From the NCBI GenBank assembly GCA_031556235.1, contig JAVBTH010000001.1:519009-583008 (forward strand): a DNA stretch of 64,000 nt, in the 5' to 3' direction. Positions 5,911-51,480 of this stretch are shown piece after piece. The DNA is from Bacilli bacterium. Lineage in GTDB: Bacteria; Bacillota_I; Bacilli_A; RFN20; CAG-826. The translations under genes and the position numbers were made by a program. Position 1 is the first letter of the stretch; the number at the start of each line of letters is the position of its first letter. Under the pieces are notes generated by a model that had not been told where the DNA came from, made no database searches, and saw only the letters and a list, made by a program, of their open reading frames with translations.

Positions 5911-5934
5911 TAAACTATTGTCGGAGTTGATAAT

Positions 5935-7143: not shown

Positions 7144-7171
7144 AAAATAAAAGTAATGCTGTATAATACAA

Positions 7172-7191
7172 TGTACTAGTAAACTAGTACA
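7172..7191. promoter_or_regulatory. Perfect 20-bp palindrome TGTACTAGT-AA-ACTAGTACA in the ftsH promoter region
   Basis: Read directly from the sequence. Lies just downstream of a TATAAT-like box (tgtataat at about 7160). Confidence 0.5.
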
Positions 7192-7236
7192 GTTAAAACT
7201 GATAGAATCATCAAGTTATGATGTGGAGGTAAATGA

Positions 7237-9159: not shown

Positions 9160-9170
9160 TCCTTTCCTTT

Positions 9171-10145: not shown

Positions 10146-10203
10146 TTGCTTTTAAAAGTAGATAAAATGTAGTAAAATAACAAGATATCATGAGGTGATA
10201 AAT

Positions 10204-11688
10204 ATGGAAGAAATAGAATTAACTGAGCAAGAGGCTGTAAGAAGGGCAAAACTTGCAAAATATAAAGAACTTGGCGTGGATCCATTCGGTCAAAAATTTG
10301 TTTGTACTGAGAATAGCGCAACAATAAAAGAAAAATGTGCAAGTAAGACTCATGAAGAATTAGATGAGAATCCACTTATTGCTAAAGTAGCAGGCCGCAT
10401 TATGACAATTAGAAGAATGGGGAAAGCTTCATTTTTAAATATTCAAGATAAATTTGGACAAATTCAATTATATCTAAAAAAAGATGTTGTTGGAGATGAG
10501 GTTTATGAACTTTTTGATTTGGCTGACATTGGTGACATCGTCGGTGCAGAAGGAAGAGTCATGCTTACTAGAACTGGCGAACTTACAGTCCGTGTTGAAA
10601 AATATCAACATTTAACTAAAGCGCTAAGACCATTACCAGAAAAATTTCATGGCTTGACCGACATCGAAGAAAGACATCGCCGCCGCTATGTTGATTTAAT
10701 TATGAACGAAGATGCCAAAAGAGTGGCATTATTAAGACCAAGAATTATTCGTAGTATGCAACATTATTTAGATGACTTAGGCTACGTGGAGGTAGAAACA
10801 TCGGTCCTACACCCAGTGTTAGGTGGGGCTTCTGCTAGACCTTTTGTCACACATCATAATACCTTAGATAAGGATTTTTATCTTCGAATTGCTACAGAAT
10901 TACCGTTAAAAAGATTACTTGTTGGCGGTTTAGAAAAAGTTTATGAAATTGGTCGTTTGTTTAGAAACGAAGGAATGGACACACGTCACAATCCAGAGTT
11001 TACTACGATAGAATTATATATGAGTTATGGTGATATTGAAGATATGGCGGAACTCGCTGAAAACACTATTCGTCATATTGCTAAAGAAGTTCTAGGAACT
11101 GTCGATGTGCCATGGGGTGAAAAGACAATTCACTTAGGAGAACCATTTAGAAAAGTTCATATGGTGGATTTAATTAAAGAAACAACCGGGGTCGATTTCT
11201 GGCAACAAATGAGTTTTGATGAAGCGGTTGCTATTGCAAAAAAACATAAGGTTCCACTTGAGAAACACTATACTGGGGTTGGACATATTATCAATGAATT
11301 TTTCGAGGTGTTTTGTGAGAAAACAATCGTACAACCAACGTTTGTTTACGGCCATCCAATTGAAATAAGCCCACTAGCAAAAAAGAGCAAAGATGAGCGC
11401 TTTACTGAAAGATTTGAGTTGTTTATTGATAGCTGTGAATACGCAAACGCATTTACAGAATTAAATGATCCGCTCGATCAAAAGGAACGTTTTGACTCAC
11501 AATTGCGTGCAAAAGCACTTGGAGATAGCGAAGCGAGTGAAATGGATAGCGACTTTTTAGAGGCGCTTGAGTATGGTATGCCGCCTGCAGGTGGTATCGG
11601 AATGGGAATTGATAGATTGATAATGCTTCTTACAAATTCCGCTTCGATTAGAGAAGTTATACTCTTCCCATGTATGCGCGATCGTTAA
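10204..11688 (+). CDS. lysS: Lysine--tRNA ligase (class II)
   Basis: OB anticodon-binding domain plus class II motifs (GLEKVYEIGRLFRNEG, GGIGMGIDRL). ATG at 10204 is preceded by a GAGGTG RBS; the ORF-track start at 10195 is a GTG inside that RBS. Confidence 0.9.
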   Translation: MEEIELTEQEAVRRAKLAKYKELGVDPFGQKFVCTENSATIKEKCASKTHEELDENPLIAKVAGRIMTIRRMGKASFLNIQDKFGQIQLYLKKDVVGDEVYELFDLADIGDIVGAEGRVMLTRTGELTVRVEKYQHLTKALRPLPEKFHGLTDIEERHRRRYVDLIMNEDAKRVALLRPRIIRSMQHYLDDLGYVEVETSVLHPVLGGASARPFVTHHNTLDKDFYLRIATELPLKRLLVGGLEKVYEIGRLFRNEGMDTRHNPEFTTIELYMSYGDIEDMAELAENTIRHIAKEVLGTVDVPWGEKTIHLGEPFRKVHMVDLIKETTGVDFWQQMSFDEAVAIAKKHKVPLEKHYTGVGHIINEFFEVFCEKTIVQPTFVYGHPIEISPLAKKSKDERFTERFELFIDSCEYANAFTELNDPLDQKERFDSQLRAKALGDSEASEMDSDFLEALEYGMPPAGGIGMGIDRLIMLLTNSASIREVILFPCMRDR

Positions 11689-11707
11689 TTATTAAAAGTA
11701 TATACTA

Positions 11708-11739
11708 AGAGACTGCCTTACAGGAGGTCTCTTTTTTTG
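11708..11739 (+). terminator. Rho-independent terminator after lysS
   Basis: AGAGAC...GTCTCT stem followed by a T7 run. Confidence 0.75.
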
Positions 11740-11805
11740 TATATATTAATAATAAAGGGCAAAAATTATATAGCAGTGTCATAAGTTTAATTTAGGAGAA
11801 CATAT

Positions 11806-13875
11806 ATGCTAGAAAAATTTTCGCTTGAATCACAGAAGATAATTGCGTCTGCGGAATCATTGTCTTATGATTTATCGCACGCTTCAATTGGATGTGAGCA
11901 TTTGTTATTATCAATACTTAAATCACCAGATGTTTTACTCACAATAGAATTAAAAAAATATCGGGTGACATTCAAAAATGTTCTCAACGAAATTAAAGAC
12001 TTGTTTCATACGCCTCCAGGTGATTTATTTTTCATGGAGTATACTTTGGAACTTAAAAAGTTACTTGAAAACGCTATTTATGATAGCAAAGAGTATCGTG
12101 AAGAGAAAGTGTCTTTAAATACACTTTGCATTACTTTTATTAAGCATTTAGAAGGCATTTGCAACGATATATTCGAAAAGTACGAAGTCGATAAAAAAAT
12201 AGTAATGGCAACACTAATTAAAAATCATAAAAAATGTTCAGATTTAGATAGAGTAATTGATTTGCACAATCTAAAGGATGTAAGAAAAGACCCTCTCATC
12301 GGCAGAAAGGCTGAGTTAAAGCAATTAATAAATACTTTAAAGAGAAGAAATAAACCAAATGCTTTAATTATAGGTGCCCCAGGTATTGGAAAGACTGCGA
12401 TTGTTGAAGAGTTAGCATTTTTGCTATCAAAAAACGAAATTAAAGGCTTAGAGAATAAAAGAATTTATGAGTTAGATATGTCTTCGGTTGTGGGTGGAAC
12501 AAAATATCGTGGAGAATTTGAAGAAAAGCTTAAAAAAATAATTAAGTTGGTTAAGGAAGATCGAGATGCCATTTTGTTTATTGATGAAATCCATAATATT
12601 ATAAAAGCCGGTGGTGCTGAAGGAGCGATTGACGCGAGCAATATTTTTAAGCCATATTTGTCGAGAGGAGAAATTCAAATCATTGGTGCCACGACAACTG
12701 ATGAGTATCATCAAACAATTGAAAAAGATAAAGCACTAAATAGACGTTTTCAGATAATTAAAATTGACCCTTCGACCAAATCAGAAACAAAAGAAATTTT
12801 ACAATCGCTTCGTCCAATCTACGAAGATCATTATAAAATTACTATCTCATCAGATTTAATGAACTATATTGTTGACTTAGCAGATGAATATATACCTAAC
12901 CAAGCTTTTCCGGATAAAGCTATCGATATCCTTGACAATTCTTGTGTAGATGCGACCGGAGAGTTAACTATCAATGATATAAACACTATCGTTGAATCGT
13001 ATTATAATGTATCAATATCTAACGTCAGTAGAGCAATGCGTGTTAGAAAGAAATTAGAAGAAAACATTTTTGGACAAGAGGAAGTTATAAACAAAGTATA
13101 TCGTGGATTGCTGCGAATCGAAAAAGGGCTTGTGCATCGAGATAAACCGCTTTTAACAATGTTTTTTGTAGGTCCGTCTGGAGTTGGCAAAACAGAAACC
13201 GCAAAAATAATTGCAAAAGAGTTTGTAAATAATGATCAAGCCCTTATTAAACTAGATATGGCTCAATATCAAGAGAGTGTTTCTCTAAATAAATTAATTG
13301 GATCGGCACCAGGATATGTTGGTTATAACGAATCTCCTTCTTTTGTTAAACGTATGAAAATGCATCCACATTGCGTGGTTTTACTTGATGAAATTGAAAA
13401 AGCACATCTTGATGTTTCGGATTTTTTCTTAAATATCTTTGATGAAGGTTATTTTACTGATGCGCATGGTGAGCGTGTTAATTGTACAAACGCTATCTTT
13501 ATTCTTACTTCAAACATAGGGTTTGATTTAGAAAATATTACTAAAAAAAGATATAGCGTAGCAAATGGCGAAAAAAACGTAGAACAAGATATTTATAAGC
13601 TATTATCCCGTCATTTCCGCCTTGAATTCCTAAATAGAATAGATGATATAGTCCCATTCAAATACTTAGATAGTAGAGTGCATTTAATGATGGTAAACAA
13701 AATAAAGCAAGATTTTATTAATAATTACAATTTTGAGCAATCATCGATATTGGAAGATGTTGTTATCGAGGTAGACAATGCTCAATTTGAACGTTTTGGA
13801 GTGAGATATATTAAGCGAATGATTGCGGATAAGTTAAGCGAATACATTGAAGAATCTGACAAAATAAAAAAATAA
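11806..13875 (+). CDS. Clp/Hsp100 family AAA+ ATPase with Clp_N domain and two AAA modules (ClpC/ClpE/ClpA-like), no obvious M/UVR linker
   Basis: Clp_N repeats at the N-terminus; D1 Walker A GAPGIGKTAIVEEL, D2 Walker A GPSGVGKTETAKIIA and the GYVGY motif. Only 689 aa. Confidence 0.65.
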   Translation: MLEKFSLESQKIIASAESLSYDLSHASIGCEHLLLSILKSPDVLLTIELKKYRVTFKNVLNEIKDLFHTPPGDLFFMEYTLELKKLLENAIYDSKEYREEKVSLNTLCITFIKHLEGICNDIFEKYEVDKKIVMATLIKNHKKCSDLDRVIDLHNLKDVRKDPLIGRKAELKQLINTLKRRNKPNALIIGAPGIGKTAIVEELAFLLSKNEIKGLENKRIYELDMSSVVGGTKYRGEFEEKLKKIIKLVKEDRDAILFIDEIHNIIKAGGAEGAIDASNIFKPYLSRGEIQIIGATTTDEYHQTIEKDKALNRRFQIIKIDPSTKSETKEILQSLRPIYEDHYKITISSDLMNYIVDLADEYIPNQAFPDKAIDILDNSCVDATGELTINDINTIVESYYNVSISNVSRAMRVRKKLEENIFGQEEVINKVYRGLLRIEKGLVHRDKPLLTMFFVGPSGVGKTETAKIIAKEFVNNDQALIKLDMAQYQESVSLNKLIGSAPGYVGYNESPSFVKRMKMHPHCVVLLDEIEKAHLDVSDFFLNIFDEGYFTDAHGERVNCTNAIFILTSNIGFDLENITKKRYSVANGEKNVEQDIYKLLSRHFRLEFLNRIDDIVPFKYLDSRVHLMMVNKIKQDFINNYNFEQSSILEDVVIEVDNAQFERFGVRYIKRMIADKLSEYIEESDKIKK

Positions 13876-13881
13876 GTTGAA

Positions 13882-13916
13882 TCGCCTGCTATTATATTAA
13901 TAGGGGCGTTTTTTTA
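13882..13916 (+). terminator. Weak terminator-like hairpin plus T7 run after the Clp ATPase gene
   Basis: A 4-5 bp CGCC/GGCG stem followed by a T-run. Confidence 0.4.
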
Positions 13917-14073
13917 TGACGGAAAAATCCTCCTATATGTAATATAGAGATTGCATAATTTCTTTACTTTGTCCTTATAGGTGTGTATAATTGTTAAAGG
14001 TAGTGTGAAGGCTACTAAAATAACTCTCTGCTATTCATTAGAATAGCCAGAAAGACCATAGGGAGGTGTACTC

Positions 14074-14361
14074 ATGCGTAAGTACGAAATTATGTATATT
14101 CTTGTACCACAACTCACCGAGGAAGCTCGTAAAGCCGAAATGGAAAAATTACATGCCATTTTAGTTAATAAAGGCGCCAAGGTTGCAGACGTAAAAGAGT
14201 GGGGACTTCGTGAATTAGCTTATGAAATTAACGATTTAACCAAAGGATTTTATGTCTTGATTAAAGTTGAAGGTGAAGCTGAAGCGACAAAAGAATTTGA
14301 TCGTTTAGCGAAGATAAATGCTAATGTTGTCCGTCATCTTATTACTATTGACAAAAACTAA
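14074..14361 (+). CDS. rpsF: 30S ribosomal protein S6
   Basis: MRKYEIMYILVP... sequence and the rpsF-ssb-rpsR operon arrangement. Confidence 0.95.
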   Translation: MRKYEIMYILVPQLTEEARKAEMEKLHAILVNKGAKVADVKEWGLRELAYEINDLTKGFYVLIKVEGEAEATKEFDRLAKINANVVRHLITIDKN

Positions 14362-14378
14362 GAGGGAGAAACAAAAGT

Positions 14379-31280: not shown

Positions 31281-32720
31281 CTATTTCTTTGCTTTCGGCT
31301 CTTTTTCTAATTTAGGCTCAACAATTTCGACGACTTCCGCTGGTGCGGTTTCTTTTCCTAAATAACTAGGAAGTTCTAATCCTGCCATTTTAAATATTTC
31401 ATTTAGTGGCGGAATTGATTTAAGTAGTGAAGAGGCGAAATTAGAAGTTGAAGATGTGCCTTCTTTACCGTTTGCACCACTATCCCAAACTGTGACTTTA
31501 TCAATTTTGAGATTTTTGATGGCGTCAACTTGAATTCTAACTAACTCTTCGATCTTATCAGAAATCATTAGCATTGCAGCTTCACTTGCGTGACCATTCG
31601 CGGCTTTAACAATTTCCATAAAACCTTCAGCTTGTTTAGTAAGTTTTGCTTGAATACCACGAGCTTCGGCTTCCATTTTGGCATAGATAGCATCAGCTTC
31701 ACCTTTTGCTAATCGTCTAATTTGTTCAGCTTTTGCTTCCGCTTCAAGCTCAAGTCTTTTCTTTTCAATTTCCATCTTGACGATGATATCAGCTTGTAAT
31801 GTTGCTTGTTCTCTAGAGGCACGAGCTTGTTCGGCTTGCATTTCAGCAGCATATGATTCTTCCAACGCTTTCGCGGTAGCGATTTTTTCAGCAGCAGTCG
31901 CAATTCTTAAAGATTCAGCTTCAATTTCACGACGTTTTGCGTTTGATTGAGAAATATTTGCTAAAGCGGTATTTTCACCACGGATTGCAATTGAGTTAGC
32001 TTCCGCGACAGAAACACGTTGATCTTTTTCAGCATTTGCTTGACCAACAGATCCATCTCTATTTTTTTCCGCGACAGATGTTTTAGCATCGTTGATGGCT
32101 TTTGCAGCGGCTTCTTTACCAAGAGCATCAATATATCCAGATTCATCGGAAATATCGGTGACGTTAACGTTGATTAGACGAAGACCAATCTTTTTAAGTT
32201 CGGTTTCGACGTTTCTACTGACGGCATCTAGAAATTTATCACGGTCAGTATTAATTTCTTCAATTTCCATGGTCGCAATTACAAGACGTAGTTGACCGAA
32301 AATAATATCTTTTGCGAGTTCTTGTACATCATTTAATCTTAAACCAAGTAGTCTTTCAGCGGCATTTTGCATAACGCCTGCTTCAGTTGATATACCAACG
32401 GTAAATCTTGAAGGAACATCAATACGAATGTTTTGTTTTGATAATGCGGCTTTAAGATCGACAGGAATAGACATAGGAGTTAAGTCCATGAACTGATAGG
32501 CTTGTACTAATGGCCAGACCATCGCGGCACCGCCATGAATACATTTTGCGCTACGTCTAACGCCATCTTTATTTGAACCAACTTTACCATGTATGACAAG
32601 AATTTTGTCAGAAGGACATTTTTTATAACGAGTTAGTAAGATAATAGCGGCTAATAAGATGACTGCTACTAGAGCAACTATTAGAAATGTTCCAGCAGGA
32701 GAAAGAAGTGTTATCGGCAT
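31281..32720 (-). CDS. floT: Flotillin-like SPFH/band-7 protein (FloT/YuaG-like)
   Basis: N-terminal TM, SPFH domain, and a long EA-rich coiled-coil. Paired with NfeD upstream. Confidence 0.8.
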   Translation of the reverse strand: MPITLLSPAGTFLIVALVAVILLAAIILLTRYKKCPSDKILVIHGKVGSNKDGVRRSAKCIHGGAAMVWPLVQAYQFMDLTPMSIPVDLKAALSKQNIRIDVPSRFTVGISTEAGVMQNAAERLLGLRLNDVQELAKDIIFGQLRLVIATMEIEEINTDRDKFLDAVSRNVETELKKIGLRLINVNVTDISDESGYIDALGKEAAAKAINDAKTSVAEKNRDGSVGQANAEKDQRVSVAEANSIAIRGENTALANISQSNAKRREIEAESLRIATAAEKIATAKALEESYAAEMQAEQARASREQATLQADIIVKMEIEKKRLELEAEAKAEQIRRLAKGEADAIYAKMEAEARGIQAKLTKQAEGFMEIVKAANGHASEAAMLMISDKIEELVRIQVDAIKNLKIDKVTVWDSGANGKEGTSSTSNFASSLLKSIPPLNEIFKMAGLELPSYLGKETAPAEVVEIVEPKLEKEPKAKK

Positions 32721-33322
32721 TATTTATTTTCCTTTCTTTTAACGACCACTCTGTCGAGGTCGTATGATTCTACAATAACTTCTGAACCAGTAGGAATTTC
32801 TTCTCCTTCGGTTACAGCGTCAATTTCGACTAGTCTTTCCTGAACAGTGACATGAACTTTACCTTTGCCACTTTTTTCTTTCGGAATCGTGAGATATACT
32901 GATGCAATTTGTCCAATTGAATTAGCATAGTCGACAGTACCATCAGATTGCATATCTTCCATTTTCTTGATAGCAAACGCGAATAAAATCATAACTATTA
33001 ATCCTGAAACAATTCCTAATAAGATAGAGAGCCAATAGTCGCCATTTTGTTCTCTAACAAGTAGAGCAACCCAAGGGCCTGTGGCAAGAAAGACTATAAC
33101 ATTTCTTACAGATAAGATGCGCATTCCGCCTATGTGTCCAAAAAAGGAACCTCCATTAGGATCAAAATCTACATCCATATCGCCAGCATCAAATTCAACA
33201 TCATTGTGATCAAAACCTATAATCATCAGAATAATTTGAATTATTAGTAATACTGTTGCGACGCCTGCAATTAGAAACAAAGCTTGAGAATAAGTCTCTA
33301 GACCTTTATACCATTCAATCAT
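32720..33322 (-). CDS. NfeD-family membrane protein (YuaF-like), flotillin partner
   Basis: 200 aa with N-terminal TM helices and a C-terminal OB-fold. Stop overlaps the floT start. Confidence 0.7.
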   Translation of the reverse strand: MIEWYKGLETYSQALFLIAGVATVLLIIQIILMIIGFDHNDVEFDAGDMDVDFDPNGGSFFGHIGGMRILSVRNVIVFLATGPWVALLVREQNGDYWLSILLGIVSGLIVMILFAFAIKKMEDMQSDGTVDYANSIGQIASVYLTIPKEKSGKGKVHVTVQERLVEIDAVTEGEEIPTGSEVIVESYDLDRVVVKRKENK

Positions 33323-33379
33323 TGCAATATATACCTCCTTAATATTTATATTAACATATTTCGATTTAAAGAATAAACA

Positions 33380-34933
33380 TTAAATTTTTGTTATTTGGAT
33401 AGTTGCTTGTGTGTTAGAAACGCTAGTCACAGAGATTGTATATCCGATAGTACTTCCATCGTTAAATTTTGTACCTTTAGTAAAGAAAGTTGTCGAAGGA
33501 GTAAAGGATTTTCCGGTTGTAAATAAAGTGGCGTTAGATGCTTTTCCATTATTTTTAAAAGTGTTTGAACCGCCTGCTTCAAGAAGGTGGACAAGTTTGT
33601 ATGTGCCGGCGGTAGTATCTGTTTCGCTCCATTCATTACTGTTAGCGGCGCCAACTGCGTAATGACCGGTATTATATTGTGCATCAGTTATGTTATCGAC
33701 ATAAGAACTGAAAGCGCCAGAGCTAGTTAATTTAACAGCGCGTGAGTCAATATGATAGATTTTAACACCTGGAATTGTATATCCCTTTAGATTATTTCCT
33801 GGATAAGCGGCAGCAGAGTCTTTTTGGTTAATACCAGTTGGGGTATAGAATTCAATGGCGATATACTCATCAAGCGCAGAGCCGTTCCAATTATCATTAA
33901 TGATGATACATTCACCAGTACTTTCAAATGGATTTAATGTAATGGTTGTAGAACCAGTTACGACATAAGGATATGTCCATTCCATTGCCATTTTTGAGTA
34001 AACATTATGATCTAAAATATTATTATCCATCATATCCAGTTGACCTGCGGCATTATAGTTATTGTCATATGGATAGTAATCATCAAGTCCGAGCATGTGC
34101 CCAGCTTCATGAATATAAGTGTGAGCATCAATACCTGAGGTGCCATAGCCATCATTCATAAATGTATAACTTGCCCACATATGAACATCGATGCTAGGTT
34201 TAGTTGAACTCGCGGCATTGCCAAGCCAATAAACCCAAGCCCAATAAGCACCACTACCAGTAGAACTATAGTTATTAGAATATATGAAACAAATACCATC
34301 CACTATGCCATCACCATCAGTATCATATTCTTTTAGTAAAGAGCTACTTGCGGAGGCATAGAATTCTTTTGCTATATAGTCTGGTGCATTATCTCCATAT
34401 CCATTAAGCGTTGTTGTGGAATATTTTGACACAAGAACGTTTGTTACTTCGCCAGTGATGTTAAGTTTTCCATAACTTGACGCTTTATAAAAGCTTGCGA
34501 CTGAGTGCCAACTTGTTTCACTTGCTTCACCAAAGAATGCATTGTCTAACCTAGTTAGCATCTCGGAGTTATAAACTGTACCATTTGATAATTGAACAGG
34601 AACAACTAGAATCTTACGATTTCCGACATGAGGCATACTTAGCATGCCGTCACTTCCGTTTACATCTCTGTTGTGGAGATTGTAACTTGTTGGAATGTAC
34701 CAGTTGTCTCCTTGTTGGCTAGTAGATGTAGATGTAGATGTAGATGTACTGACAGACACATTGGTTGCATTAGAAATTTCACCAACTGAATCAGATACAC
34801 TATCTACAGTAGACACATTTGATGAAGGTATTGATCCAATACTTTCATTGCCACTAGAATCTAACGCAGTACATCCCCCAAGTAGTAAAGCGGTTAAAAG
34901 TAGTGACGCGGATAATAATTTATTATTTTTCAT
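33380..34933 (-). CDS. Secreted zinc metallopeptidase lipoprotein (HEAGHxxGLxDxYY; M6/M64-like)
   Basis: Lipobox LLGGC. Ser/Thr linker (ST)5. Zinc motif YIHEAGHMLGLDDYYPYD. Confidence 0.65.
   Translation of the reverse strand: MKNNKLLSASLLLTALLLGGCTALDSSGNESIGSIPSSNVSTVDSVSDSVGEISNATNVSVSTSTSTSTSTSQQGDNWYIPTSYNLHNRDVNGSDGMLSMPHVGNRKILVVPVQLSNGTVYNSEMLTRLDNAFFGEASETSWHSVASFYKASSYGKLNITGEVTNVLVSKYSTTTLNGYGDNAPDYIAKEFYASASSSLLKEYDTDGDGIVDGICFIYSNNYSSTGSGAYWAWVYWLGNAASSTKPSIDVHMWASYTFMNDGYGTSGIDAHTYIHEAGHMLGLDDYYPYDNNYNAAGQLDMMDNNILDHNVYSKMAMEWTYPYVVTGSTTITLNPFESTGECIIINDNWNGSALDEYIAIEFYTPTGINQKDSAAAYPGNNLKGYTIPGVKIYHIDSRAVKLTSSGAFSSYVDNITDAQYNTGHYAVGAANSNEWSETDTTAGTYKLVHLLEAGGSNTFKNNGKASNATLFTTGKSFTPSTTFFTKGTKFNDGSTIGYTISVTSVSNTQATIQITKI
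34720..34752. repeat. Hexanucleotide tandem repeat (TAGATG)n, about 5 units, encoding the (ST)n linker of the metalloprotease lipoprotein
   Basis: Sequence ggctagTAGATGTAGATGTAGATGTAGATGtact, in frame on the minus strand. Confidence 0.8.
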
Positions 34934-35088
34934 TATTTTGTCCTCCTTTAGAACTTCCGTTTATTATTATAGTTGAAATTACCATAATGTGATATATGAA
35001 ACTCTGCTTTTTTACTATTAGAGAATAAGTTTCAGATAATATTCACATTCAAGTAGCAATGATATACACTTATAAGTAGGTGATTAAT

Positions 35089-36018
35089 ATGAAACTGAAA
35101 AAAATGATGATACTTGTCGTAATGCTCGTGCCTTTTTTGTTTTCTTGTTCTTCTAATCCTTCTGATGCATCTTATTCTAGTAATATGTCTGGTACTAGTA
35201 TTGAAACAAGCGAACCTATTTCAGAGAAAGAGTCTACAAGTGGCTTAACTAGTTCGCCTTGGAATGAAAAAACAAGGAACCAAATGCTAGGCGCACTAGG
35301 TTGTGAAATGCCATACATAAATGAGTTTGCTGAGAATTATCAAGTTATTATGGGGACAATGGCAGACTCCACCATTCCTTACGTCAATCTTTATGTGGAG
35401 GGGGCATCAAACTGGGTTAATTCATATAAAACTGCTTTGATTAAAGAAGGGTATTTATATGATTCTGAAGACTTTGACGATGGCGTTACGTGGTACAATT
35501 ACTATAAAAATATATCAATTGGTAGGGACTTAGACATTAGATTTGCCTTTTACTACAATGAGGGAAGTAATTGGTTTGATGTCTATGGAAACTTGTCGAC
35601 TGGAGGGGGAGGATTAGACATACCCGATACCGCTGATTACAAACTATTGCCGGATATCTTTGGGCTAACTAGCGATCCATATAAAACAGGAGAACAAGTT
35701 TTAGAAATTGAAGATTTATCGCTAACATATTTGGATGTTAAAAGTCAGTTGATAAATAAGGTTAAACAAATCCAGTTTAAAAAAGGAAGCGGGTGTATTT
35801 ACAATAATTTAGCTATGTCGCCGATTAGTCTTATTTATTTAGAAGACGCCAATAATTATACTAACTTTAGGGTTTATGGCGGAAATTCACTAGCAAATAT
35901 GACTTTAATTACAACTTATAATGGAGTGTATGGTCTAAATGGAGCAACCTACTTTAAGATTGAATCGGCAAATATTAATGTTGGTACGCTTACTTCAATA
36001 CAGATAGTATTACAATAA
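35089..36018 (+). CDS. Hypothetical lipoprotein
   Basis: Signal peptide plus lipobox LFSCSS. ATG at 35089 after an AGTAGGTGA RBS. No recognised domain. Confidence 0.55.
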   Translation: MKLKKMMILVVMLVPFLFSCSSNPSDASYSSNMSGTSIETSEPISEKESTSGLTSSPWNEKTRNQMLGALGCEMPYINEFAENYQVIMGTMADSTIPYVNLYVEGASNWVNSYKTALIKEGYLYDSEDFDDGVTWYNYYKNISIGRDLDIRFAFYYNEGSNWFDVYGNLSTGGGGLDIPDTADYKLLPDIFGLTSDPYKTGEQVLEIEDLSLTYLDVKSQLINKVKQIQFKKGSGCIYNNLAMSPISLIYLEDANNYTNFRVYGGNSLANMTLITTYNGVYGLNGATYFKIESANINVGTLTSIQIVLQ

Positions 36019-42854: not shown

Positions 42855-42871
42855 TTGACAACGACTGTCAA
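42855..42871. promoter_or_regulatory. Perfect inverted repeat TTGACA-ACGAC-TGTCAA (doubling as a -35-like hexamer on both strands)
   Basis: Read directly. Lies in the 360-nt AT-rich gap between dnaX and the downstream island. Confidence 0.45.
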
Positions 42872-42880
42872 TAAAAAGAG

Positions 42881-43000
42881 GTGCCCAATCATTATATACG
42901 CCATAGGCAGTAGATTTCGGGGGAAATACGAACACAACATTTAAAGAGAAGTATCAGCACAAATATAGCCCCTGCACCATTAACAGAGGCTATACTTTTT
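42881..43000 (+). other. Candidate structured leader/small RNA ending in an intrinsic terminator-like hairpin (TATAGCC-17 nt-GGCTATA plus T7)
   Basis: A hairpin plus T-run at 42962-43000 lies immediately upstream of the small HTH ORF. A 5' GGUGC can pair with GCACC in the terminator loop region. Confidence 0.3.
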
Positions 43001-43017: not shown

Positions 43018-43203
43018 ATGGAAAATACGGTATATAGTAAAATATTTAGTTTAATATTTATAAATAAAGAAAACATTGGCTTAGAAGAAATTGCCGCAAG
43101 AGTTGGTGTTAGCCTTGATACTTTAAAAAGAAACATAAAAAAATGCATCATTATAATGGAATTTATACACACACATGCTGGCGATTATACCAAAGACATA
43201 TAA
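43018..43203 (+). CDS. Small HTH-domain protein (61 aa)
   Basis: LEEIAARVGVSLDTLKRNIKK resembles an HTH recognition unit. The ORF-track start at 43003 is a GTG. Confidence 0.4.
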   Translation: MENTVYSKIFSLIFINKENIGLEEIAARVGVSLDTLKRNIKKCIIIMEFIHTHAGDYTKDI

Positions 43204-43285
43204 ATTCTAACAGTGCAGATGTTGCGCTGTTTGAACTCTTTTGTTTGCGATAAATTGATGGTGAGCAAAGGAGGAAGGGATTGAG

Positions 43286-43717
43286 ATGGAGTTTTTAGAA
43301 CTAATAGAGATTGAGTTATTAAAGTCAGTAGGTTATGTGACCATAATATCGGCGGTATTTACAATTATACTAACTAGCATAATTAAGAAGATACTAGTCA
43401 AAAAAGATGTAATATACCCAAATATGTCGAAAGCCCATAAGGATGAAATATTATCAAAAATTGCGCGATATACGGCGCTTGTAAGTTATGCGATTGTATT
43501 CTTTCTTAATTTGTTTCTGACAAAACAAACTATAGAAATAGACGAAAATCTAATCATTTCGCTAACTTGCGGAGGCAGTATGACAATAATTGTCACTAAA
43601 GGAATTTACACAGCATTACACCAAGGTAGCAAAAAGCAACTCGCTTATACCGAGATGGAAAGAGCACTAGAAATCGAACGTTTAGTGGAAGCTGAAATAA
43701 TTTCACTTAAAAAGTAG
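43286..43717 (+). CDS. Small membrane protein (about 3 TM) with a coiled C-terminal tail
   Basis: Hydrophobic segments and a GGAGG RBS upstream. Confidence 0.45.
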   Translation: MEFLELIEIELLKSVGYVTIISAVFTIILTSIIKKILVKKDVIYPNMSKAHKDEILSKIARYTALVSYAIVFFLNLFLTKQTIEIDENLIISLTCGGSMTIIVTKGIYTALHQGSKKQLAYTEMERALEIERLVEAEIISLKK

Positions 43718-43729
43718 AAAGGAGAAAAA

Positions 43730-44443
43730 ATGGAAACAAGTAAAATGCCAGGAATGTCTATAAGTTTTATCAGAAATGAATATGGAAATAAGTTTTTGAT
43801 TTTTAAAAGCGAAAGAATCACTCATGAATTAGAAGATAAACTTCGCTATGGAAGCATTAGAATGCAAATTTGGCTAGAAAAAAAGGTGCGAAAAGCCAAT
43901 GGTAAGAATCGTGTCAAAAAATGGGTTCATCCAGCGGATAAAAGTTCAACAGCACCAGTGAGATTTAGTGAAGAAGAAATTTTATTTAGACAAGGTTGGG
44001 GAGTTAGAACTTACAGTCCAGATTCCGGATTTTGTCCAAGTTATTCTACCACTAACGGATATGTTCCAACGGAATGGGAAGTAACTATAGACGATGTTAA
44101 AAGAGGCTGCATTGAGCGTAAAATTCCCTTCGATGATATAATTTCAAATATTATAACCTATAATGAGGCTCTCGTTTTTGACGAATCTTATAATATAATT
44201 GATGGTCCGTTTGAAATACCTAGTGGAACGGAATTATCACAAATTAGACTTATTGGAAATAGAACAAGTAGTAAAATTGAAATTCGTGTCAAATTAGTCA
44301 TTAAAGAAAATAATCTATTGACTAGTGGGACGTCACTTAATTCAGCTTTAGTAGGTCTTAGAAAAGAAGGGAATCTACCAGATTTTGATCGGATCTTTGA
44401 CGCTGAAAATGTAATGAAAATAGCCGCGATAGTAATTAAATAG
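43730..44443 (+). CDS. Hypothetical protein (237 aa), no recognisable family
   Basis: ORF with an AGGAG RBS, tightly coupled to the preceding gene. Confidence 0.45.
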   Translation: METSKMPGMSISFIRNEYGNKFLIFKSERITHELEDKLRYGSIRMQIWLEKKVRKANGKNRVKKWVHPADKSSTAPVRFSEEEILFRQGWGVRTYSPDSGFCPSYSTTNGYVPTEWEVTIDDVKRGCIERKIPFDDIISNIITYNEALVFDESYNIIDGPFEIPSGTELSQIRLIGNRTSSKIEIRVKLVIKENNLLTSGTSLNSALVGLRKEGNLPDFDRIFDAENVMKIAAIVIK

Positions 44444-44510
44444 AATTGGTTAGTGAGGCTTGTTCATGATTTCTTCTTAAAGAGATTTATAAGTCGAAGC
44501 GTTGAGAAAT

Positions 44511-44519
44511 TGTTATAAT
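44511..44519 (+). promoter_or_regulatory. Extended -10 promoter element TGtTATAAT upstream of the rhs gene
   Basis: TGnTATAAT match. The nearby TTGAGA is only 5 nt away and so is not a functional -35. Confidence 0.45.
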
Positions 44520-44520
44520 C

Positions 44521-44705
44521 ACTTCAGGCAATTGAAGTGAGCGGGGACTCTTATTCGATAGTAACAACTATCTACAGAATGAGGAGCCACTAAAGACTTT
44601 TCTTTAGATTCGATCAAAAAGTTTCACGACCCAATTCATGTATATAAGACCGATAGTTAAAAATATCGGTCTCATTTTAAATCATGGAAAAAGGAGATAA
44701 ATAAA
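44521..44705 (+). promoter_or_regulatory. About 180-nt structured 5' leader of the rhs gene, with a hairpin at the putative TSS and a 9-bp hairpin AGACCGATA-gttaaaaa-TATCGGTCT followed by cattttaaa
   Basis: The hairpins were read from the sequence. A strong RBS AAAGGAG lies 8 nt before the ATG at 44706. Confidence 0.4.
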
Positions 44706-47700
44706 ATGAGTACAAAAAGAACTGTGTCGATTATACCCAGTTTAACTGGAGTAACAGATAGCAATAATAGACTGACATTAGGTAAAAACATTGGTATAGG
44801 CATTACGATTCCTGCTACCAATCTGAATATAAATGAAAATGAAAAAATCAGCAGTGCGGTATTAATGCTCCGCATAGAGGGTTTTTATACGACTATGACT
44901 GGTTCATCAAATTTCACTGCTTATTTGATCGACAAAAATAATAAAAAAATAGCTTTAAAAGCTTTTAAACTATCCTCAATTCAAAGCGCAATGACAATAC
45001 CTTTGCTATTTGATGTAGGAGGTTTTCTAAAAGAAACCTTGTTGGGCGAAGACATATTATTAGCGCTCAAAATAGATGTGCCTCTCTTAGGAACGCATTA
45101 TTTAAATATTTCTAAACAAGGAGAATTGGTAGTCAGTTTAGAGTCTGTTGAAGAGGATCAAGCAGATGAGGGTGAAACAGGTGATAATGAGTCAGGCGAA
45201 GAAACTGCTTATGAATTAGATATTGACCGAAAAGATAGTGCAGTATCGGATGAAATTAATAAGATTATCTCGCTTACCGCAAGAGGGGCCGAATACTCTG
45301 AAGCGAATGATCCTATTCCTAATGGAGGGTTCACGGTTGGTTTTAATGGATATGGACATGGCGACGTAGATTACGTTGTGGCAGTTAATCAAGTCTTAAA
45401 AGATTTAAAAGATTTTGCAATAGAAAATGTGAAAATGGTTTTGAAAATTGATGATCATAAAAGACAGCAAATCGATGAAAATTTACCACTAGTAGCAATG
45501 GTTCATGGAAGCGACATTCTTGATGTGTTTACAGTGAACAATGATGCAGAAATGGAGTTTGATGTTACTAAAATATTCTTGTCTCCAATCGATAATATAT
45601 TGGTGAAGATTAAATCATTTTCAACTTTATCAAAACTAAACTATATTTTAGTTTCAGAAGATTCGGCTACTTTTAGGATTAAAGTAAAAGAAAAACATAA
45701 CACCGATAGAACTAGTATTACTAAAACATTAAAAAATCGTGACGAATTGCGTATCGATTTGTGTGATGGAAATCAAGTTCATGAGCACGTTTTGCTTACT
45801 AAAGAAGAAAGCCAACTGCCATTCGATATAACCCAAATTGGCAGCAAGCATGGTATAAAACTCAATATTGAGCAAAAACTTGAAACTGATGTAAAATTTG
45901 GAAATCTAGAATCAGATGGAAAAATTTCACGTGTAATCGAGGCAAATGGTGAGTCAAGGATATTTGTTGAAAAGTATTTTTATTATATGGGTGATAAAAG
46001 AATATTTGTTTCTAAGAATGACGTAATCAAAGTTAGTGAAGAAAAATATGAGATTAAATTAGAAGATAAAATACATGAAGTTTTCAAAGCTAGTATTGAT
46101 GAGAATGGAAATGCTTTAGTTTCTAGTAAAGAAGAAGATATAGATGTAGGTTTATTCTTAAAAAAATTTGGAGACAAAGTCTCTGAAGTTAAAATGTATT
46201 GTTACATTAATGATACAAGAAAAGAAATAACAATTGATGATAATATAGCAAATGTATCATCTATATATTACTTTGAGCATAGTGGAGTTTTTCCATTGAG
46301 TGACGTGGCAATCAGGAAAGATTCACTAGGAACTTATTTTGTATGCGACGGTGAGAGATTTGTGGTTGGAATAAAGGATCATAAGTTTGAAGTTATAGAT
46401 AAAAGTAACAAAATATATTTTCAGATTCCAACGAAATATTCTATAGATAATCATGATAATGCGCAAATAGCTGAATACGAATTAATAGAAATTTTTTCGG
46501 AAAAAGATAATATTTCTAAACATCTCCCAGAAATTTTTAAAAATGAAGATTTACTAATGAAAATCGAGGAATTAGAACAAACAAATGACTATATTAAGCA
46601 AATTAAAAATCAATTAGATGAAATAGAAATAAACAAAAATGATGCAAGACAAAAAACATATAAAGAAATTTTTAATATTAAAAACATCCTGCAAGACATT
46701 TATAATGAATGGAATAGTTTTAATAGAGATGAAGAATGGAATAAAGTAAAAAACATTTACTTTCCTGATGAATGTGAATATTTGTCGAAAGAAGATTGTT
46801 ATAAGTATCTTAACGATGCGTTAAATGACTTAGTTATATCTACAGATTTTGTTTTAAACGAATATAATATGTCGAGAATAGTTGAAAGCAAAGATTGTTT
46901 GTTAAGACCACTTAGTACTGGGTTAAATTATAATTTGCCGAGAGAAGTTTTTCTTCCAAAACTTAATGCATGCATAAATTCATTCAATTCTAAGCTTGCA
47001 TACGAAAACGAACAGATACAAAATGATACTATAGAGAAACAAAAAACGAGAATTAGTAAAGAATTAGAAAAATATCAAAATATAAAGAAGAAACTCTTTG
47101 ATGATATAAGGGTTCTATGGAGAAAATATTCATCCGGTCCAGTAAGTTTTATATTAAATCAAGATGAAAACTATTATGGATATGATTCAAAAGGCAGTTT
47201 TATCACCATGGGCAACAAAAAAGAAGAGACGTTGCGAATCATTTATGACGATAAACTCTCAGAATTTGGAGTAATATCGACAATTTATTTTAAAAACGAA
47301 AAGTTTGTTACTTTTTCATATGAGAATAATCAACTTAACAGAGTGAAAGCAGAGACGGGTAAGTTCGTTGAATTGGAAATGCTTGCAAATCAAATCAAGT
47401 ATAACCATAACAATAAATACGATGTTGATATAACTTGGAACGGAGAAACTCTTCGAGTTAGTAATAATGAGCATTATTTAGAAGCATCAAATTTATTTTA
47501 TGACCCACCAATAATTAAAGGAGAATCATGTCATAAATTCTTAAAAGTCGGAGGACTGATTACTAGTTATAATAGTCAAAAAATTGATGGTGGAGAAGAT
47601 ATTTATTTAGAAGAATATGATATTCACTTTATAAGCGATACTGTTACTAAAGTAGAGAATTTACAAAATAAACTAGTTCAGCAATATATCTTTAATCACT

Positions 47701-50700
47701 TAGGTGAAGTTGTGAGCACATTCAACTATTATTTGGAAAACGATCGTGAAAACGTTGAAGATATTGCCTTTAATGCAGTGAAACGCAATATAGGAAACAA
47801 GACTATTGAAGTTAAACAAACGAAAGTAGATATAATTGAACCGATTACTTTTGAAAACGGCATTAATGATTGGATAAGTTCCGCGGGAACAGTCGCAAAT
47901 ATTGCTAGCAATCAGCATTTCACAGGTAGCAAATCTTTAGAGATTGTAGGTGGAATTAACAAAAAGGCTAGCGTTAGTAAGAATATCACTTTAAATAAAT
48001 TTCCGATAAATAAAGCTTTTTCAGTCTCAGTATGGGCTAAAGCTGATGCGATGATTATGAACGACATATGCATTATTAACGAACCAGCAAAATCAGATGA
48101 AGGCAATGTTACTAAGTTTACTTTGCGAGTTGAGACAAAATTTAAAAAACGCTCACAGATTTTTGTAAGTGAGGCTGGTTTTGATGCACTTACAAGTGAT
48201 TGGCAATTACTTTCTGTGCCGGTGTCATTAAGATTTGCAAGCGAATTAAGCGATATAGTTAGTGTAAAAATTGTTCTTAAATATGAATACAACAACGGCA
48301 ATGTTTATTTTGATGACTTACATGTGGGCGAATGTTCGTATTCTCTTATTGAAGTTAATGATGAAGGTGTTGTGGTTTATCAAGAGAGTGAAAATGAAAG
48401 AACATATTATCTAAACTTAGTGGATAAAAAGCCAACGATTTCTTTGACTTTTGATAATGATGGCGAGAAGTATCATAACTACTTTAGTTATGGTGAAAAC
48501 GGTCAATTAGTTAAAGAAGAAAATCATTTAGGAATTATCAAAGAATATTTGTTTGATGAAAAAAATAAGAAAAGAGTCATTAAAACTTATCATAAAGATG
48601 AACCAGCTAATTCAATTTATGAAGAAAATATTTTTGATGAAAATGGTCGCAAAATAAAAGAAAGCACCAGTCGTGGTGGCTATCGTAATTATGGATTGTA
48701 TAATAATTATGAATATCATCAAAATTCTGATTTAGTTAGAAGTTATCAAGATGGTAGAGGTAATAAAACATATTATGGATATGATGAGGATAATCGTCTA
48801 ATAAATATTACTAGTTCGGTTAATGATGAAGAATGTTCGACATCAATCAAGTACGCTGGAGAATATATATGTAGAATGAGGACAGGAGATAATGAATATA
48901 CATATTCATATGATACTCGAGGACGTTTGTTAAACTTTAATATCAATAATCAAGAATATTTAAATAGCTCTTTTGAAGAAATTGACTTTGAAGATGTAAC
49001 AGTTACAACATACGGAACAGCGGAACAGTTTGTTAGCAAAGTAAGTAAGGATAAAAAATCAAATGTAATTATTTATAATGGTGAAATGTTACAGGAAATA
49101 AGTAAACTTGATCATGATACATACGAGATTAAGGACTATTTAAATAAAGCAATATATTTAATAGATGAAGAATCGGTTGACTGTAGAACACTTGATGCAA
49201 GTGAATTGATATATAGAAAAACGGTAAATCCACACATTCATAGTGTAAATTATGAAATTAACAATTGTGGAACAATAAAAGAATATACCTACATTACTCA
49301 TTATGATAATTTATTAGATCAAAAAATTAAAGAGTATAGTATTAATGAATCAACTAAGCAACTTTTTGACTATGATTTGCTCAATCGCGTTAAAAAGATA
49401 TGTATTTCTGAAAATGATAATAATTTGCTCGAATATAATTATAAATATTTAAAAGCTGGAGACTATGCAAGTAATATTATAAACAAAGTTACCAGATTTG
49501 TTTCAGAGGAATTAGAAAAAGAAACAAATTATAAATATGATGAAATAGGCAATATTATTGAAATATTGCAAAATGGTGAGACCACACATCGTTACAAATA
49601 TGATAGTGTTAGTCGTTTAGTTAGAGAAGATAATAAAGTTTTGAATTTAACTAATTTGTTTAGCTATGACTGTAATGGAAATATTTTGAGTAAAACATGT
49701 TATGGGTTTGCAAATGGAAAGTTAATAGATAAATTTTCAGGTAATAAACATGTATACACTTACGATAAGGACAATCAAGACCGTTTAATTGACTTTAATG
49801 GTGAAAAATGTACATATGACAAAATTGGAAATCCAAAGATTTACCGCGACAAAACTCTAACTTGGAGTCACTTACGTGATTTAATTAATTATGGACCCGT
49901 AACTTTTACGTATGGTGCAAATCATATGAGAACAAGTAAAAACTTATACGGCAACATTAGTAAGTATGTTTATGATGGAAATAATTTAATATTTGAAACG
50001 AGAAGTGATGGAACGACTATCGCCTATTTCTATGGCGCAGAGGGAATATTGGGATTTGAATACTGCGGGGAAAAGTATTTCTATGGAAAAAGTTTGCAAG
50101 GTGATGTTGATTGCATATATAATAAAGATGGAAAAATTATAGTAAAATATGAGTACGATGGGTGGGGGAATGTTAGAACTATTAATGGAAATGAAAAAAA
50201 TATAGGCGATATAAATGCGATAAGATATAGAGGATACTATTTTGATGTTGAAACTAATCTATATTACTTAAAATCTAGGTATTATGATCCAGAAACTGGA
50301 CGCTTTATTAATGCAGATGATATAAGCTACCTTGATCCGGAAACTATTAATGGTTTAAATTTATATGCTTACTGCAGAAATAACCCTATTAGATTTAAAG
50401 ATGAAATGGGCCGTTTTCCAAATAGTGATAGTGATGCCTATGAATTATTGGCAGCGGCTCTCGAGTTTAGCATAGGATTTGTATATGCGTTTAAAGCGTT
50501 TGGAATTAATCAAGATCTAAAAACAGCTACTTGGCCTCCTTACATTACAAAATACACTAATGAATTAACGGCGTTAAATAATACTTTGAAAATTGTCCAA
50601 AAAGCAGCAACTGTGTTAGCTGTAATTGGAATTGCTATTTCTACGATAGAAAACATAAATTCGGACATAAAAAAAGGTTACTCAACTGGAAGAATAGTAT

Positions 50701-50963
50701 CAAATGCCATCGTTAATACTGTAGTCAATTCCATAAGTACATTTGGCTTTGCAGCTTTAGGCTCAAAAATTGGTGGAGTAATAGGATCGTTTATTCCAAT
50801 TCCAGGTGTCGGTACCGCGATTGGAATGGTGATAGGGGCAGTGATTGGGTATGGTGTGGGTTTAGTATTTAACGCTGTGATGAATTTGAAAATAGGCGGC
50901 AAAAGTATTATGGATCATATTAGAGATGGATTTTATAACTTTTGGAAAAGTATATTTAGATAA
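44706..50963 (+). CDS. Giant Rhs/YD-repeat polymorphic toxin (2085 aa): unknown N-terminal region, acidic stretch, CBM4/9-like beta-sandwich, YD repeats, Rhs repeat-associated core, variable C-terminal glycine-zipper toxin domain
   Basis: Many YD repeats (e.g. [61 protein letters not shown]). The Rhs core reads [33 protein letters not shown]...[18 protein letters not shown]. The CBM-like domain is at about 47844-48332 (FENGINDW...[10 protein letters not shown]...FSVSVWAK...WQLLSV...VYFDDLHV). The N-terminus has no signal peptide. Confidence 0.85.
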   Translation: [2085 protein letters not shown]

Positions 50964-50972
50964 TAGTGAGGA

Positions 50973-51407
50973 ATGAAAATGAAAAAAATAAGCTTAGTGT
51001 CAATTGGTATAAAAATAATTATTGCGGTTTTAATTTTAATTTTTCTCGCCGCATTTGTTTTTCTAGCCATTTATGAAGGTCTAACGTCTTCAAACGTATT
51101 ATTCTATATTTTACTGCTACTCGCGATTAGTATAATGATTCTTTCTATAATTTTAAGTTTTAAAAGCAGGATACTAATTAATTATAATGAAAAGTACTTT
51201 GTAGTAAATAAAAAAAAGATAAATTTTTGTAATATAAAAGATGTGATTGTTTCGGAAACCTTAGTTAATAAAAGAATTAAACGTGCTATTATAATTCAAA
51301 AGAATGGAATAGAGGTAGAATTTATGTACATCTGTATTGGAAATAGAAGACAGACGAAAAAAATAATTAGTATTTCTAACGAATTAAAACTCTTAAACAT
51401 TACATAG
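50973..51407 (+). CDS. Putative cognate immunity protein of the Rhs C-terminal toxin (two-TM membrane protein plus small cytoplasmic domain)
   Basis: Sits immediately (9 nt) downstream of the rhs stop with its own GAGG RBS. Two TM helices. Position is typical of rhsI. Confidence 0.5.
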   Translation: MKMKKISLVSIGIKIIIAVLILIFLAAFVFLAIYEGLTSSNVLFYILLLLAISIMILSIILSFKSRILINYNEKYFVVNKKKINFCNIKDVIVSETLVNKRIKRAIIIQKNGIEVEFMYICIGNRRQTKKIISISNELKLLNIT

Positions 51408-51449
51408 AAATGCGATTTAAACATTTAGCGAGTTTTGGTGCAGAGAGAA

Positions 51450-51480
51450 AGGTAAATCATAAAAATGATTTACCTTTTTA
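51450..51480 (+). terminator. Strong rho-independent terminator closing the rhs operon
   Basis: 11-bp perfect stem AGGTAAATCAT-aaaa-ATGATTTACCT followed by TTTTTA. Confidence 0.85.

Follow-up and report, generated by a model that had tools for sequence, protein, structure and literature searches.

Several described systems bear on how large toxins with a YD-repeat shell act and how they leave the cell. The toxins of Tse5 and of the bacterial teneurin-like protein (BiTLP) act on the cytoplasmic membrane from outside, and some YD-shell proteins have no signal peptide, their export being described as unknown (PMC13018210). A regulator and a holin accompany a large signal-less toxin in the pathogenicity locus (PaLoc) of C. 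difficile, where they are TcdR, TcdE and TcdA/TcdB (PMC10516005, PMC12150058). Further precedents of regulator, holin and toxin are TcsE/TcsL (PMC8878733), UviA/UviB/Bcn5 and TpeE/TpeL (PMC9527704). The Tc toxins, which have an Rhs shell, are released by a holin/endolysin type X secretion system (T10SS) (PMC10847048). The exit of very large signal-less toxins from Gram-positive cells is only partly understood, as the debate on TcdE illustrates. In this study, we analysed a window of 64,000 nucleotides (nt) from a Bacilli bacterium (contig JAVBTH010000001.1, positions 519,009 to 583,008), in which a gene for a giant signal-less Rhs protein and a small membrane protein gene lie between dnaX and prfA. 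All coordinates are those of the window, and all features of the unit lie on the + strand. We hold with high confidence that the locus is an interbacterial Rhs toxin/immunity pair. Our preferred reading of the whole, in which production and Sec-independent release of the toxin are governed by a cassette of three upstream genes (a small helix-turn-helix (HTH) gene, orf143 and orf237), is one that we regard as evenly balanced.

The Rhs open reading frame (ORF) occupies 44706..50963 and consists of 2,085 uninterrupted codons, giving a protein of 2085 amino acids (aa). Its ATG lies 8 nt past a strong ribosome-binding site (RBS), AAAGGAG. Because an in-frame stop is present at 44658, 48 nt before the ATG, the N-terminus cannot be extended upstream, and the length of the frame in DNA of about 30% G+C indicates that it is not open by chance. 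The results confirmed that 44706-50963 encodes a genuine Rhs "toxin in a shell" with an adjacent candidate immunity gene. The initial annotation, which had been made from the sequence, described a 2085-aa Rhs/YD protein, a small membrane ORF and a terminator in a toxin-immunity layout; all of these were found at the coordinates given there, with the small ORF beginning 9 nt past the Rhs stop.

The main YD-repeat shell covers aa 1220-1904 (48363..50417) and ends in the Rhs core (nt 50154-50411). The core model TIGR03696 scored 72.4 bits against a cut-off of 32.5 at aa 1817-1902, matching model positions 1-75 of 76 (NCBIfam), and the core segment reads RYYDPETGRFINADD ... NNPIRFKDEMGRF. Solved Rhs, Tc and teneurin shells in the PDB match aa 1537-1911, with E values from 1e-16 (best) to 1e-9. 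A local profile built from P0026, a Firmicute Rhs protein, aligns with aa 1306-1920 (E 4.8e-140), and the shell is 31-38% identical to those of P0005 and P0026. An earlier block of YD-type repeats was located at aa 820-1035 (47163..47810), where a local jackhmmer YD profile matches aa 820-928 (domain E 1.3e-5) and BLAST aligns aa 823-900 to the YD repeats of P0026. The repeats are degenerate and few of them individually exceed thresholds: TIGR01643 scored 26.8 bits against a cut-off of 15.8 at aa 1611-1641 (NCBIfam), and Pfam RHS_repeat passed once, with 32.2 bits against a gathering score of 22. The "many YD repeats" first reported are therefore correct as to the presence of a YD shell and overstated as to the repeats, only single ones of which reach family thresholds.

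Between the two repeat blocks lies an inserted beta domain, aa 1041-1210 (47826..48335), recognised by alignment to Firmicute Rhs proteins. It aligns to aa 1333-1490 of P0031, within a longer alignment of overall E 5e-29, and to aa 907-1060 of P0026 (E 0.024); no match was obtained in Pfam or the PDB. By eye, the domain looks like a carbohydrate-binding module. In the core, the aspartyl autoprotease motif (PxxxxDPxGL) keeps its Asp residues, and DPxGL is replaced by DEMGR within RYYDPETGRFINADD...NNPIRFKDEMGRF. Relatives carry similar variants of the cleavage motif, such as KDEIGES and VDYTGQW.

The C-terminal domain, aa 1905-2085 (181 aa; 50418..50963), is the putative toxin. It is hydrophobic and rich in glycine zippers (11% Gly, 13% Ile), with transmembrane (TM)-like hydrophobic segments at 1960-1981 and 2025-2061. 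Matches to Gly-zipper_Omp and DUF6861 were both sub-threshold, the PDB gave no match, and the nearest homologues end in C-terminal domains of other, unrelated kinds. Its sole database relative is a weak 141-aa match that shares only the glycine-zipper motif GSFIPIPGVGTAIG. The candidate immunity protein (144 aa; 50973..51407), encoded 9 nt past the Rhs stop, has two strong N-terminal TM helices followed by a soluble domain of about 75 aa, and no family was found for it above cut-off. Taken together, the composition of the C-terminal domain and the 2-TM protein downstream point to a toxin that probably permeabilises membranes and to a membrane immunity protein. The unit is closed by a terminator hairpin with a perfect 15-bp stem at 51446-51479 (region to 51480; region z -3.45).

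The N-terminal region preceding the shell, aa 1-815 (44706..47150), has no known homologue. When aa 1-820 were run exhaustively with phmmer against 1.84 billion cluster representatives, the protein matched nothing but itself, and aa 1-815 found no match in Pfam, PHROGs, the PDB or phages. The region was predicted to be beta-rich at 1-147, to have an acidic linker at about 150-200, to be beta-rich again at 200-600 and to be helical at 600-810. An AlphaFold2 single-sequence model of aa 1-830, made without an alignment, had a mean confidence (pLDDT) of 40.8, and was used for secondary structure only and for no fold search. In other Rhs proteins of Firmicutes (P0002-P0031, about 2,000 aa long), a conserved N-module of some 450 aa recurs, of which CBM96 forms part, and a local jackhmmer search finds this module in P0005, P0031 and the protein of contig L081. 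As a candidate for this region, divergent DNRLRE/CBM96 domains at aa 1-147 and 170-335 were considered and rejected: jackhmmer misses the query and the hhalign probability is below 1%. The orphan region had been put at about 1,150 aa in the initial annotation; the absence of a recognisable family stands, and the size is reduced to about 815 aa by the YD profile match at aa 820-928 and by the alignment of aa 1042-1210 to the beta domain of Firmicute Rhs proteins. The lineage is very poorly sampled, so the orphan findings carry less weight.

Known export signals were also missing. Within the first 70 aa, the Kyte-Doolittle mean over 19 residues peaked at 0.81, against about 1.6 expected for the hydrophobic core of a Sec signal, as judged by hydropathy and sequence reading rather than by a dedicated signal-peptide predictor. 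The N-terminal sequence contains neither a Cys for a lipobox nor an RR motif. LXG, WXG100, PAAR, VgrG, wall-anchor and S-layer domains were absent when the whole protein and eight segments were searched in Pfam and NCBIfam, and DUF6531 gave no match in the same databases. Pfam detected no NHL or other teneurin-like protein (TLP) domain, and the similarity to the TLP chains 9pt5 and 9ifo is confined to the shell end, aa 1625-1911. The genes flanking the Rhs gene are not WXG-like, and no FtsK/EssC-type gene occurs in the 64-kb window. A type VI secretion system (T6SS) would not be expected in a Gram-positive host. Both earlier statements, that the protein has no signal or trafficking domain and that the 64 kb contain no type VII secretion system (T7SS) or T6SS genes, thus held when checked by hydropathy, by Pfam and NCBIfam, and by annotating or reading all other ORFs of at least 120 aa. 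The missing signal is also less unexpected than the initial annotation took it to be, since signal-less YD-shell toxins are already in the literature (PMC13018210).

The genomic setting was compared across 80 dnaX loci from GTDB species representatives, the nearest of which are metagenome-assembled genomes of uncultured Erysipelotrichales and related "Bacilli", with best DnaX identities of 57-68%. Where both genes were present (69 loci), dnaX and prfA were divergent neighbours 67-247 bp apart in 57. The largest gap among the 69 was 2,889 bp, as against 8,920 bp in the window, and none of the 80 dnaX loci held a relative of the island genes. Given this gap and the close adjacency in relatives, the 8.9-kb unit is a lineage-specific island, as the proposed insertion between dnaX and prfA had implied. 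No sign of a mobile element was detected in it: there was no integrase, no notable flanking or att-like repeat and no shift in G+C. Eleven loci have insertions of 1.3-2.9 kb at the same site, and by eye these encode either a 367-aa protein of unidentified type or thioredoxin-reductase-like and glutaredoxin-like proteins. They look metabolic and do not resemble toxin cassettes.

The unit reaches further upstream than the initial annotation had placed it, to about 43018, and three conserved genes (43018-44443) had been overlooked. The first is a small HTH ORF of 61 aa (43018..43203), a candidate regulator of the island, which is also called in the public record (P0069). Its matches to HTH_24, HTH_11 and Sigma70_r4 are weak (E 0.006-0.013) and below cut-offs. 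The second, orf143 (43286..43717), encodes a 143-aa membrane protein of holin-like topology, with three hydrophobic segments at about 14-36, 59-81 and 88-108, a net charge of +4 in loop 1, and a C-terminal tail of 35 aa with 6 K/R and 6 D/E. It agrees with the general description of a holin: small size, 1-4 TM segments and a C-terminus that is hydrophilic and charged. Its predicted topology is that of class I holins (N-out, 3 TM, charged cytoplasmic tail). The third, orf237 (43730..44443), starts 12 nt past orf143 and encodes a soluble protein of 237 aa. None of the three has a family above cut-off in Pfam, NCBIfam, PHROGs or PADLOC, and for orf143 and orf237 the phage, plasmid and viral-contig searches were all empty.

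The cassette was found again on a few contigs. On the metagenome contig L084, an HTH gene (35% identity, E 2e-7) occupies the equivalent position, an orf143 homologue with an identical segment layout lies at L084:549-1004 (42% identity, E 1e-23), and an orf237 homologue is about 32% identical. The order HTH/orf143/orf237 is kept there, and the cassette is followed by a gene for a signal-less protein of at least 486 aa. On L081 and L082, the part of an orf143-like gene that encodes the C-terminus precedes an orf237 homologue and then a signal-less protein of 514 aa. Across contigs, the orf237 homologues are 29-36% identical. Elsewhere, the large proteins behind the cassette contain the N-module found in the Firmicute Rhs relatives (E 1e-18 to P0026). 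With that N-module on L081, L082 and L084 and the orphan region here, the cassette travels with large signal-less proteins of two N-terminal types. The linkage of orf143 to a large signal-less protein is thus seen in the window and on L084, and on L081 and L082 through a C-terminal fragment; the cases are few, and the island has no endolysin. The HTH protein of L084 gave a sub-threshold match to BLYB (21 bits against 25), which was not relied on.

The Rhs gene is preceded by a leader of 262 nt (44444..44705) with a promoter-like site, structured RNA and a hairpin with a T-run. An extended -10 promoter-like site, TGtTATAAT, is present at 44511-44519. The leader RNA (44520-44705) has a minimum free energy of -46.7 kcal/mol, with z -3.9 against shuffles, and forms about five hairpins; no Rfam family matches it. 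The terminator-like hairpin with its T-run lies at 44647-44672, immediately before the Rhs RBS, and a comparable hairpin precedes the RBS in L084. Transcription of the Rhs gene must cross the hairpin at 44647-44672, which suggests regulated read-through. The leader RNA may be an attenuator or an antitermination target. The leader of L081 between the orf237 homologue and the 514-aa gene (L081:824-1031) contains two copies of ATTGGTGACAATTGCTCCTTTGA, which are possibly operator sites for the small HTH protein. The interval between dnaX and the island holds a TTGACA-containing promoter-like site and, about 130 nt on, a hairpin with a T-run at about 42965-43000 (42856-43000, +); together they could represent a small RNA. 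On the non-coding parts of the island, Rfam gave only a chance-level sraL match at 42856-43000 (14.5 bits, E 3.1).

Because the Rhs protein has no Sec, T7SS or T6SS signal, we propose that the upstream genes control both its production and its exit. The small HTH protein would turn the unit on, perhaps by letting transcription pass the structured hairpin of the leader. The YD-repeat shell (aa ~820-1904) would enclose the 181-aa C-terminal domain, and the Rhs core would cut this domain free inside the shell. The 3-TM orf143 protein, together with the Ig (immunoglobulin)-like orf237 protein, may open the membrane for a Sec-independent release, either with lysis of a subpopulation or without lysis. 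Once delivered, the glycine-zipper domain would insert into the cytoplasmic membrane of the target cell and dissipate it, while the 2-TM protein encoded 9 nt downstream would shield the producing cell and its kin. Recognition, targeting or adhesion would then fall to the orphan N-terminal 815 aa. Holin-type release is, above all the others, a step that we infer: our confidence that the cassette effects release, by analogy with TcdR/TcdE, UviA/UviB or T10SS, is moderate to low.

Several observations weigh against this reading. The cleavage motif departs from DPxGL (KDEMGRF), and the toxin and immunity roles are assigned from composition and position only. When orf143 was considered as a known holin, no family was found for it in PHROGs (at E ≤0.1) or Pfam, and tblastn found no relative in INPHARED phages, IMG/VR or PLSDB. 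The fold of orf237 is only generically Ig-like, a small beta-sandwich, and the island contains no endolysin or other peptidoglycan hydrolase. The cassette is present on only three or four contigs, and the downstream protein elsewhere is not an Rhs protein: it is some 500 aa long and has a phage-tail-like N-module. The absence of T7SS or tail-like genes refers to the 64-kb window and not to the whole genome.

A first alternative is that the Rhs protein is exported by a dedicated system elsewhere in the genome, for example a type VIIb secretion system (T7SSb), through an unrecognised N-terminal signal, and that the cassette is regulatory or unrelated. Firmicute Rhs toxins can be T7SS substrates (PMC10327511), and the survey covered 64 kb of a contig that is at least 672 kb long. 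The long helical stretch predicted at aa 600-810 is also consistent with such a route. The evidence from the locus itself argues in the other direction. Signals for T7SS are N-terminal helical domains, and the N-terminus of the Rhs protein is instead predicted to be beta. No LXG or WXG100 domain was detected with Pfam or NCBIfam, no small WXG-like partner genes flank the Rhs gene, and the window has no T7SS gene. We consider export by such a system unlikely.

Release without any dedicated export was weighed next. Autolysis, or lysis of the mother cell during sporulation, could free the protein passively, and the cassette would then only time its expression. The organism has the sporulation genes spoVT, yabQ and spoIIE, and the lack of an endolysin in the island agrees with this explanation. 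Release by lysis is accepted for colicins (PMC3482391), and for TcdA/B it is debated (PMC12485765). Passive release, however, leaves unexplained why ordered membrane-protein and Ig-like genes stand before large signal-less proteins on independent contigs. We believe that this explanation is quite unlikely to account for the locus.

A third alternative comes from the relatives of the Rhs protein, among which the signal-less members of the clade occur again and again in phage lysis settings. The N-module that the relatives share is homologous to the N-terminal part of gp18 of the siphophage Bacillus phage PBC1 (L086), a virion protein encoded right after the tape-measure gene, and is also present in ORFs of 950-1,170 aa behind tape-measure-sized ORFs on 16 IMG/VR contigs (L087-L102). 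This sequence likeness suggests that Firmicute Rhs proteins (P0026, P0005 after its signal peptide, and P0031 of Bacillus) may have borrowed a phage tail domain. P0026 is a signal-less Rhs protein of 2,046 aa encoded in the tail-lysis part of a prophage late region on L083 (Logan SRR6824185 contig, 3770-12218), where the order is a tail protein (phrog_6465), Rhs, a DUF5071 protein, a holin, an Amidase_2 endolysin and an HTH repressor. A sequenced gut phage, Anaeroplasmataceae phage NatCom_34063 (PV036447.1, L103), encodes at 8194-14370 a related signal-less Rhs protein of 1,836 aa and, behind it, a 2-TM protein of 214 aa. Over aa 1555-2051 of the query, the identity of this Rhs protein is 28% (E 9e-35), and its C-terminal domain, hydrophobic and rich in Gly and Ala, is similar in composition to that of the query; the pair sits among replication-region genes, not tail genes. 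The similarity of the candidate immunity protein to the 2-TM protein of NatCom_34063 was not significant (E 0.07).

The Rhs protein could accordingly be carried on, or released with, a phage or tail-like particle, its N-terminus docking to a tail or baseplate encoded elsewhere and the island being the remnant of a prophage late region. Apart from the relatives just described, the finding that orf237 homologues precede N-module proteins speaks for this possibility. The query itself, however, does not carry the N-module (hhalign gives a probability below 1%), and no phage sequence matched its N-terminal region. Phage structural, integrase and lysis genes are missing from both the island and the window, the island is not flanked by att-like repeats, and the cassette was not found in phage collections. 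Carriage on such a particle is improbable.

An intracellular antiphage device acting by abortive infection, with the membrane toxin freed from its shell on infection, would fit the missing export signal, a membrane-collapsing toxin like many abortive-infection effectors and a very weak Cap15_TM match of orf143 (E 0.095), but we regard this alternative, raised in the initial annotation, as unsupported and very improbable, because the sole PADLOC result for the five proteins of the island is a weak WYL-type match of the small HTH protein (E 0.009), competition systems typically include a separate, constitutive immunity protein in the membrane and are the better fit to a dedicated one, Rhs shells are known as delivery containers, and no sensor or NTPase component is present.

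The reading that we prefer, a toxin/immunity pair with cassette-governed production and release, can be carried one step further. HTH/orf143/orf237 might be an undescribed, dedicated release module for giant signal-less exoproteins of uncultured gut Bacilli, consisting of a holin-like protein with an Ig-like partner and no endolysin. The orphan N-terminus would then be recognised by the module or would bind the target cell, and Gram-positive Rhs toxins would gain a new trafficking class. We put this forward tentatively, as a doubtful extension.

The other ORFs of at least 120 aa in the window are origin-proximal housekeeping, sporulation and competence genes, SecA and a few lipoproteins. They include mfd, spoVT, yabQ, spoIIE, tilS, ftsH, lysS, ssb, rplI, dnaB, tmk and holB, and further recR, ybaB, dnaX, prfA, prmC, sua5, rpiB, comFA/FC, secA and prfB. 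The window proteins that were looked up and found, including PrfA and SecA, are all singletons at 90% identity. The 64 kb yielded neither a tRNA gene nor an Rfam family that reaches its gathering score, and there is no signal recognition particle RNA upstream of dnaX. At 31281-36018, a cluster encodes an SPFH/flotillin protein, an NfeD-like membrane protein, a 517-aa lipoprotein with a HEAGHxxGxxD zinc-protease motif and a 312-aa lipoprotein; for all but the first of these, Pfam gave no family at E 1e-5.

Compared with described systems, an Rhs polymorphic toxin with its immunity protein is of a well-known kind; what is new here is that the first 815 aa and the toxin are both orphans and that a conserved cassette lies upstream. 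The locus provides a compact test case, in which a regulator, a holin-shaped protein, a beta-sandwich protein, a signal-less Rhs protein and an immunity gene are found within 8.5 kb. If the cassette is a release device, it would represent a new trafficking class for polymorphic toxins and a new holin-like family. If it is not, the locus would be an Rhs competition system of the ordinary sort, specific to one gut lineage that is poorly sampled and unusual in how divergent its N-terminus is.

WapA of Bacillus subtilis and the Sec-dependent Gram-positive Rhs proteins, including the Ruminococcus-type P0002-P0025, share with the query the YD shell, the Rhs core, the variable toxin and the adjacent immunity gene. 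The Sec-dependent proteins are 36-38% identical to the query over the last ~320 shell residues, and the inserted beta domain is common to both. WapA-type proteins, however, begin with a Sec signal peptide (P0005: MKCKLRKCLSTVSIILCFAMIYLIPMNVVALV), which the query does not have. Their wall-binding or CBM96-type N-modules are likewise absent from the query, whose first 815 aa are unique.

Tse5, a pore-forming Rhs protein of Pseudomonas aeruginosa (PMC10684867, as cited in PMC13018210), and the C-terminal domain of BiTLP resemble the query in combining a YD shell with a small hydrophobic membrane toxin. Their toxin domains have no detectable sequence similarity to that of the query. Tse5 is delivered by T6SS, whereas the query has no PAAR/VgrG module in Pfam or NCBIfam. 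TLPs have TIP, NHL and FN-plug domains, none of which was detected in the query. The Rhs proteins of NatCom_34063 and P0026 are like the query in having no signal peptide and a similar shell (P0026 is 31% identical over aa 1337-1934). They differ in that their genes lie inside phage genomes, beside tail, replication or lysis genes, whereas the query lies in a chromosomal housekeeping region, and their N-terminal regions are unrelated to that of the query.

Against the holin-toxin loci, the differences are that orf143 belongs to no known holin family and that the island has no endolysin or remnant of one. With 61 aa, the HTH protein of the island is too short for a full TcdR-type sigma factor. 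We know of no counterpart to the orf237-like Ig gene in loci of the TcdE, UviB or TcsE type. What the island has in common with PaLoc and with the TcsE-, TpeE- and UviB-type loci is the arrangement itself, a small regulator and a small multi-TM gene beside a very large signal-less toxin gene.

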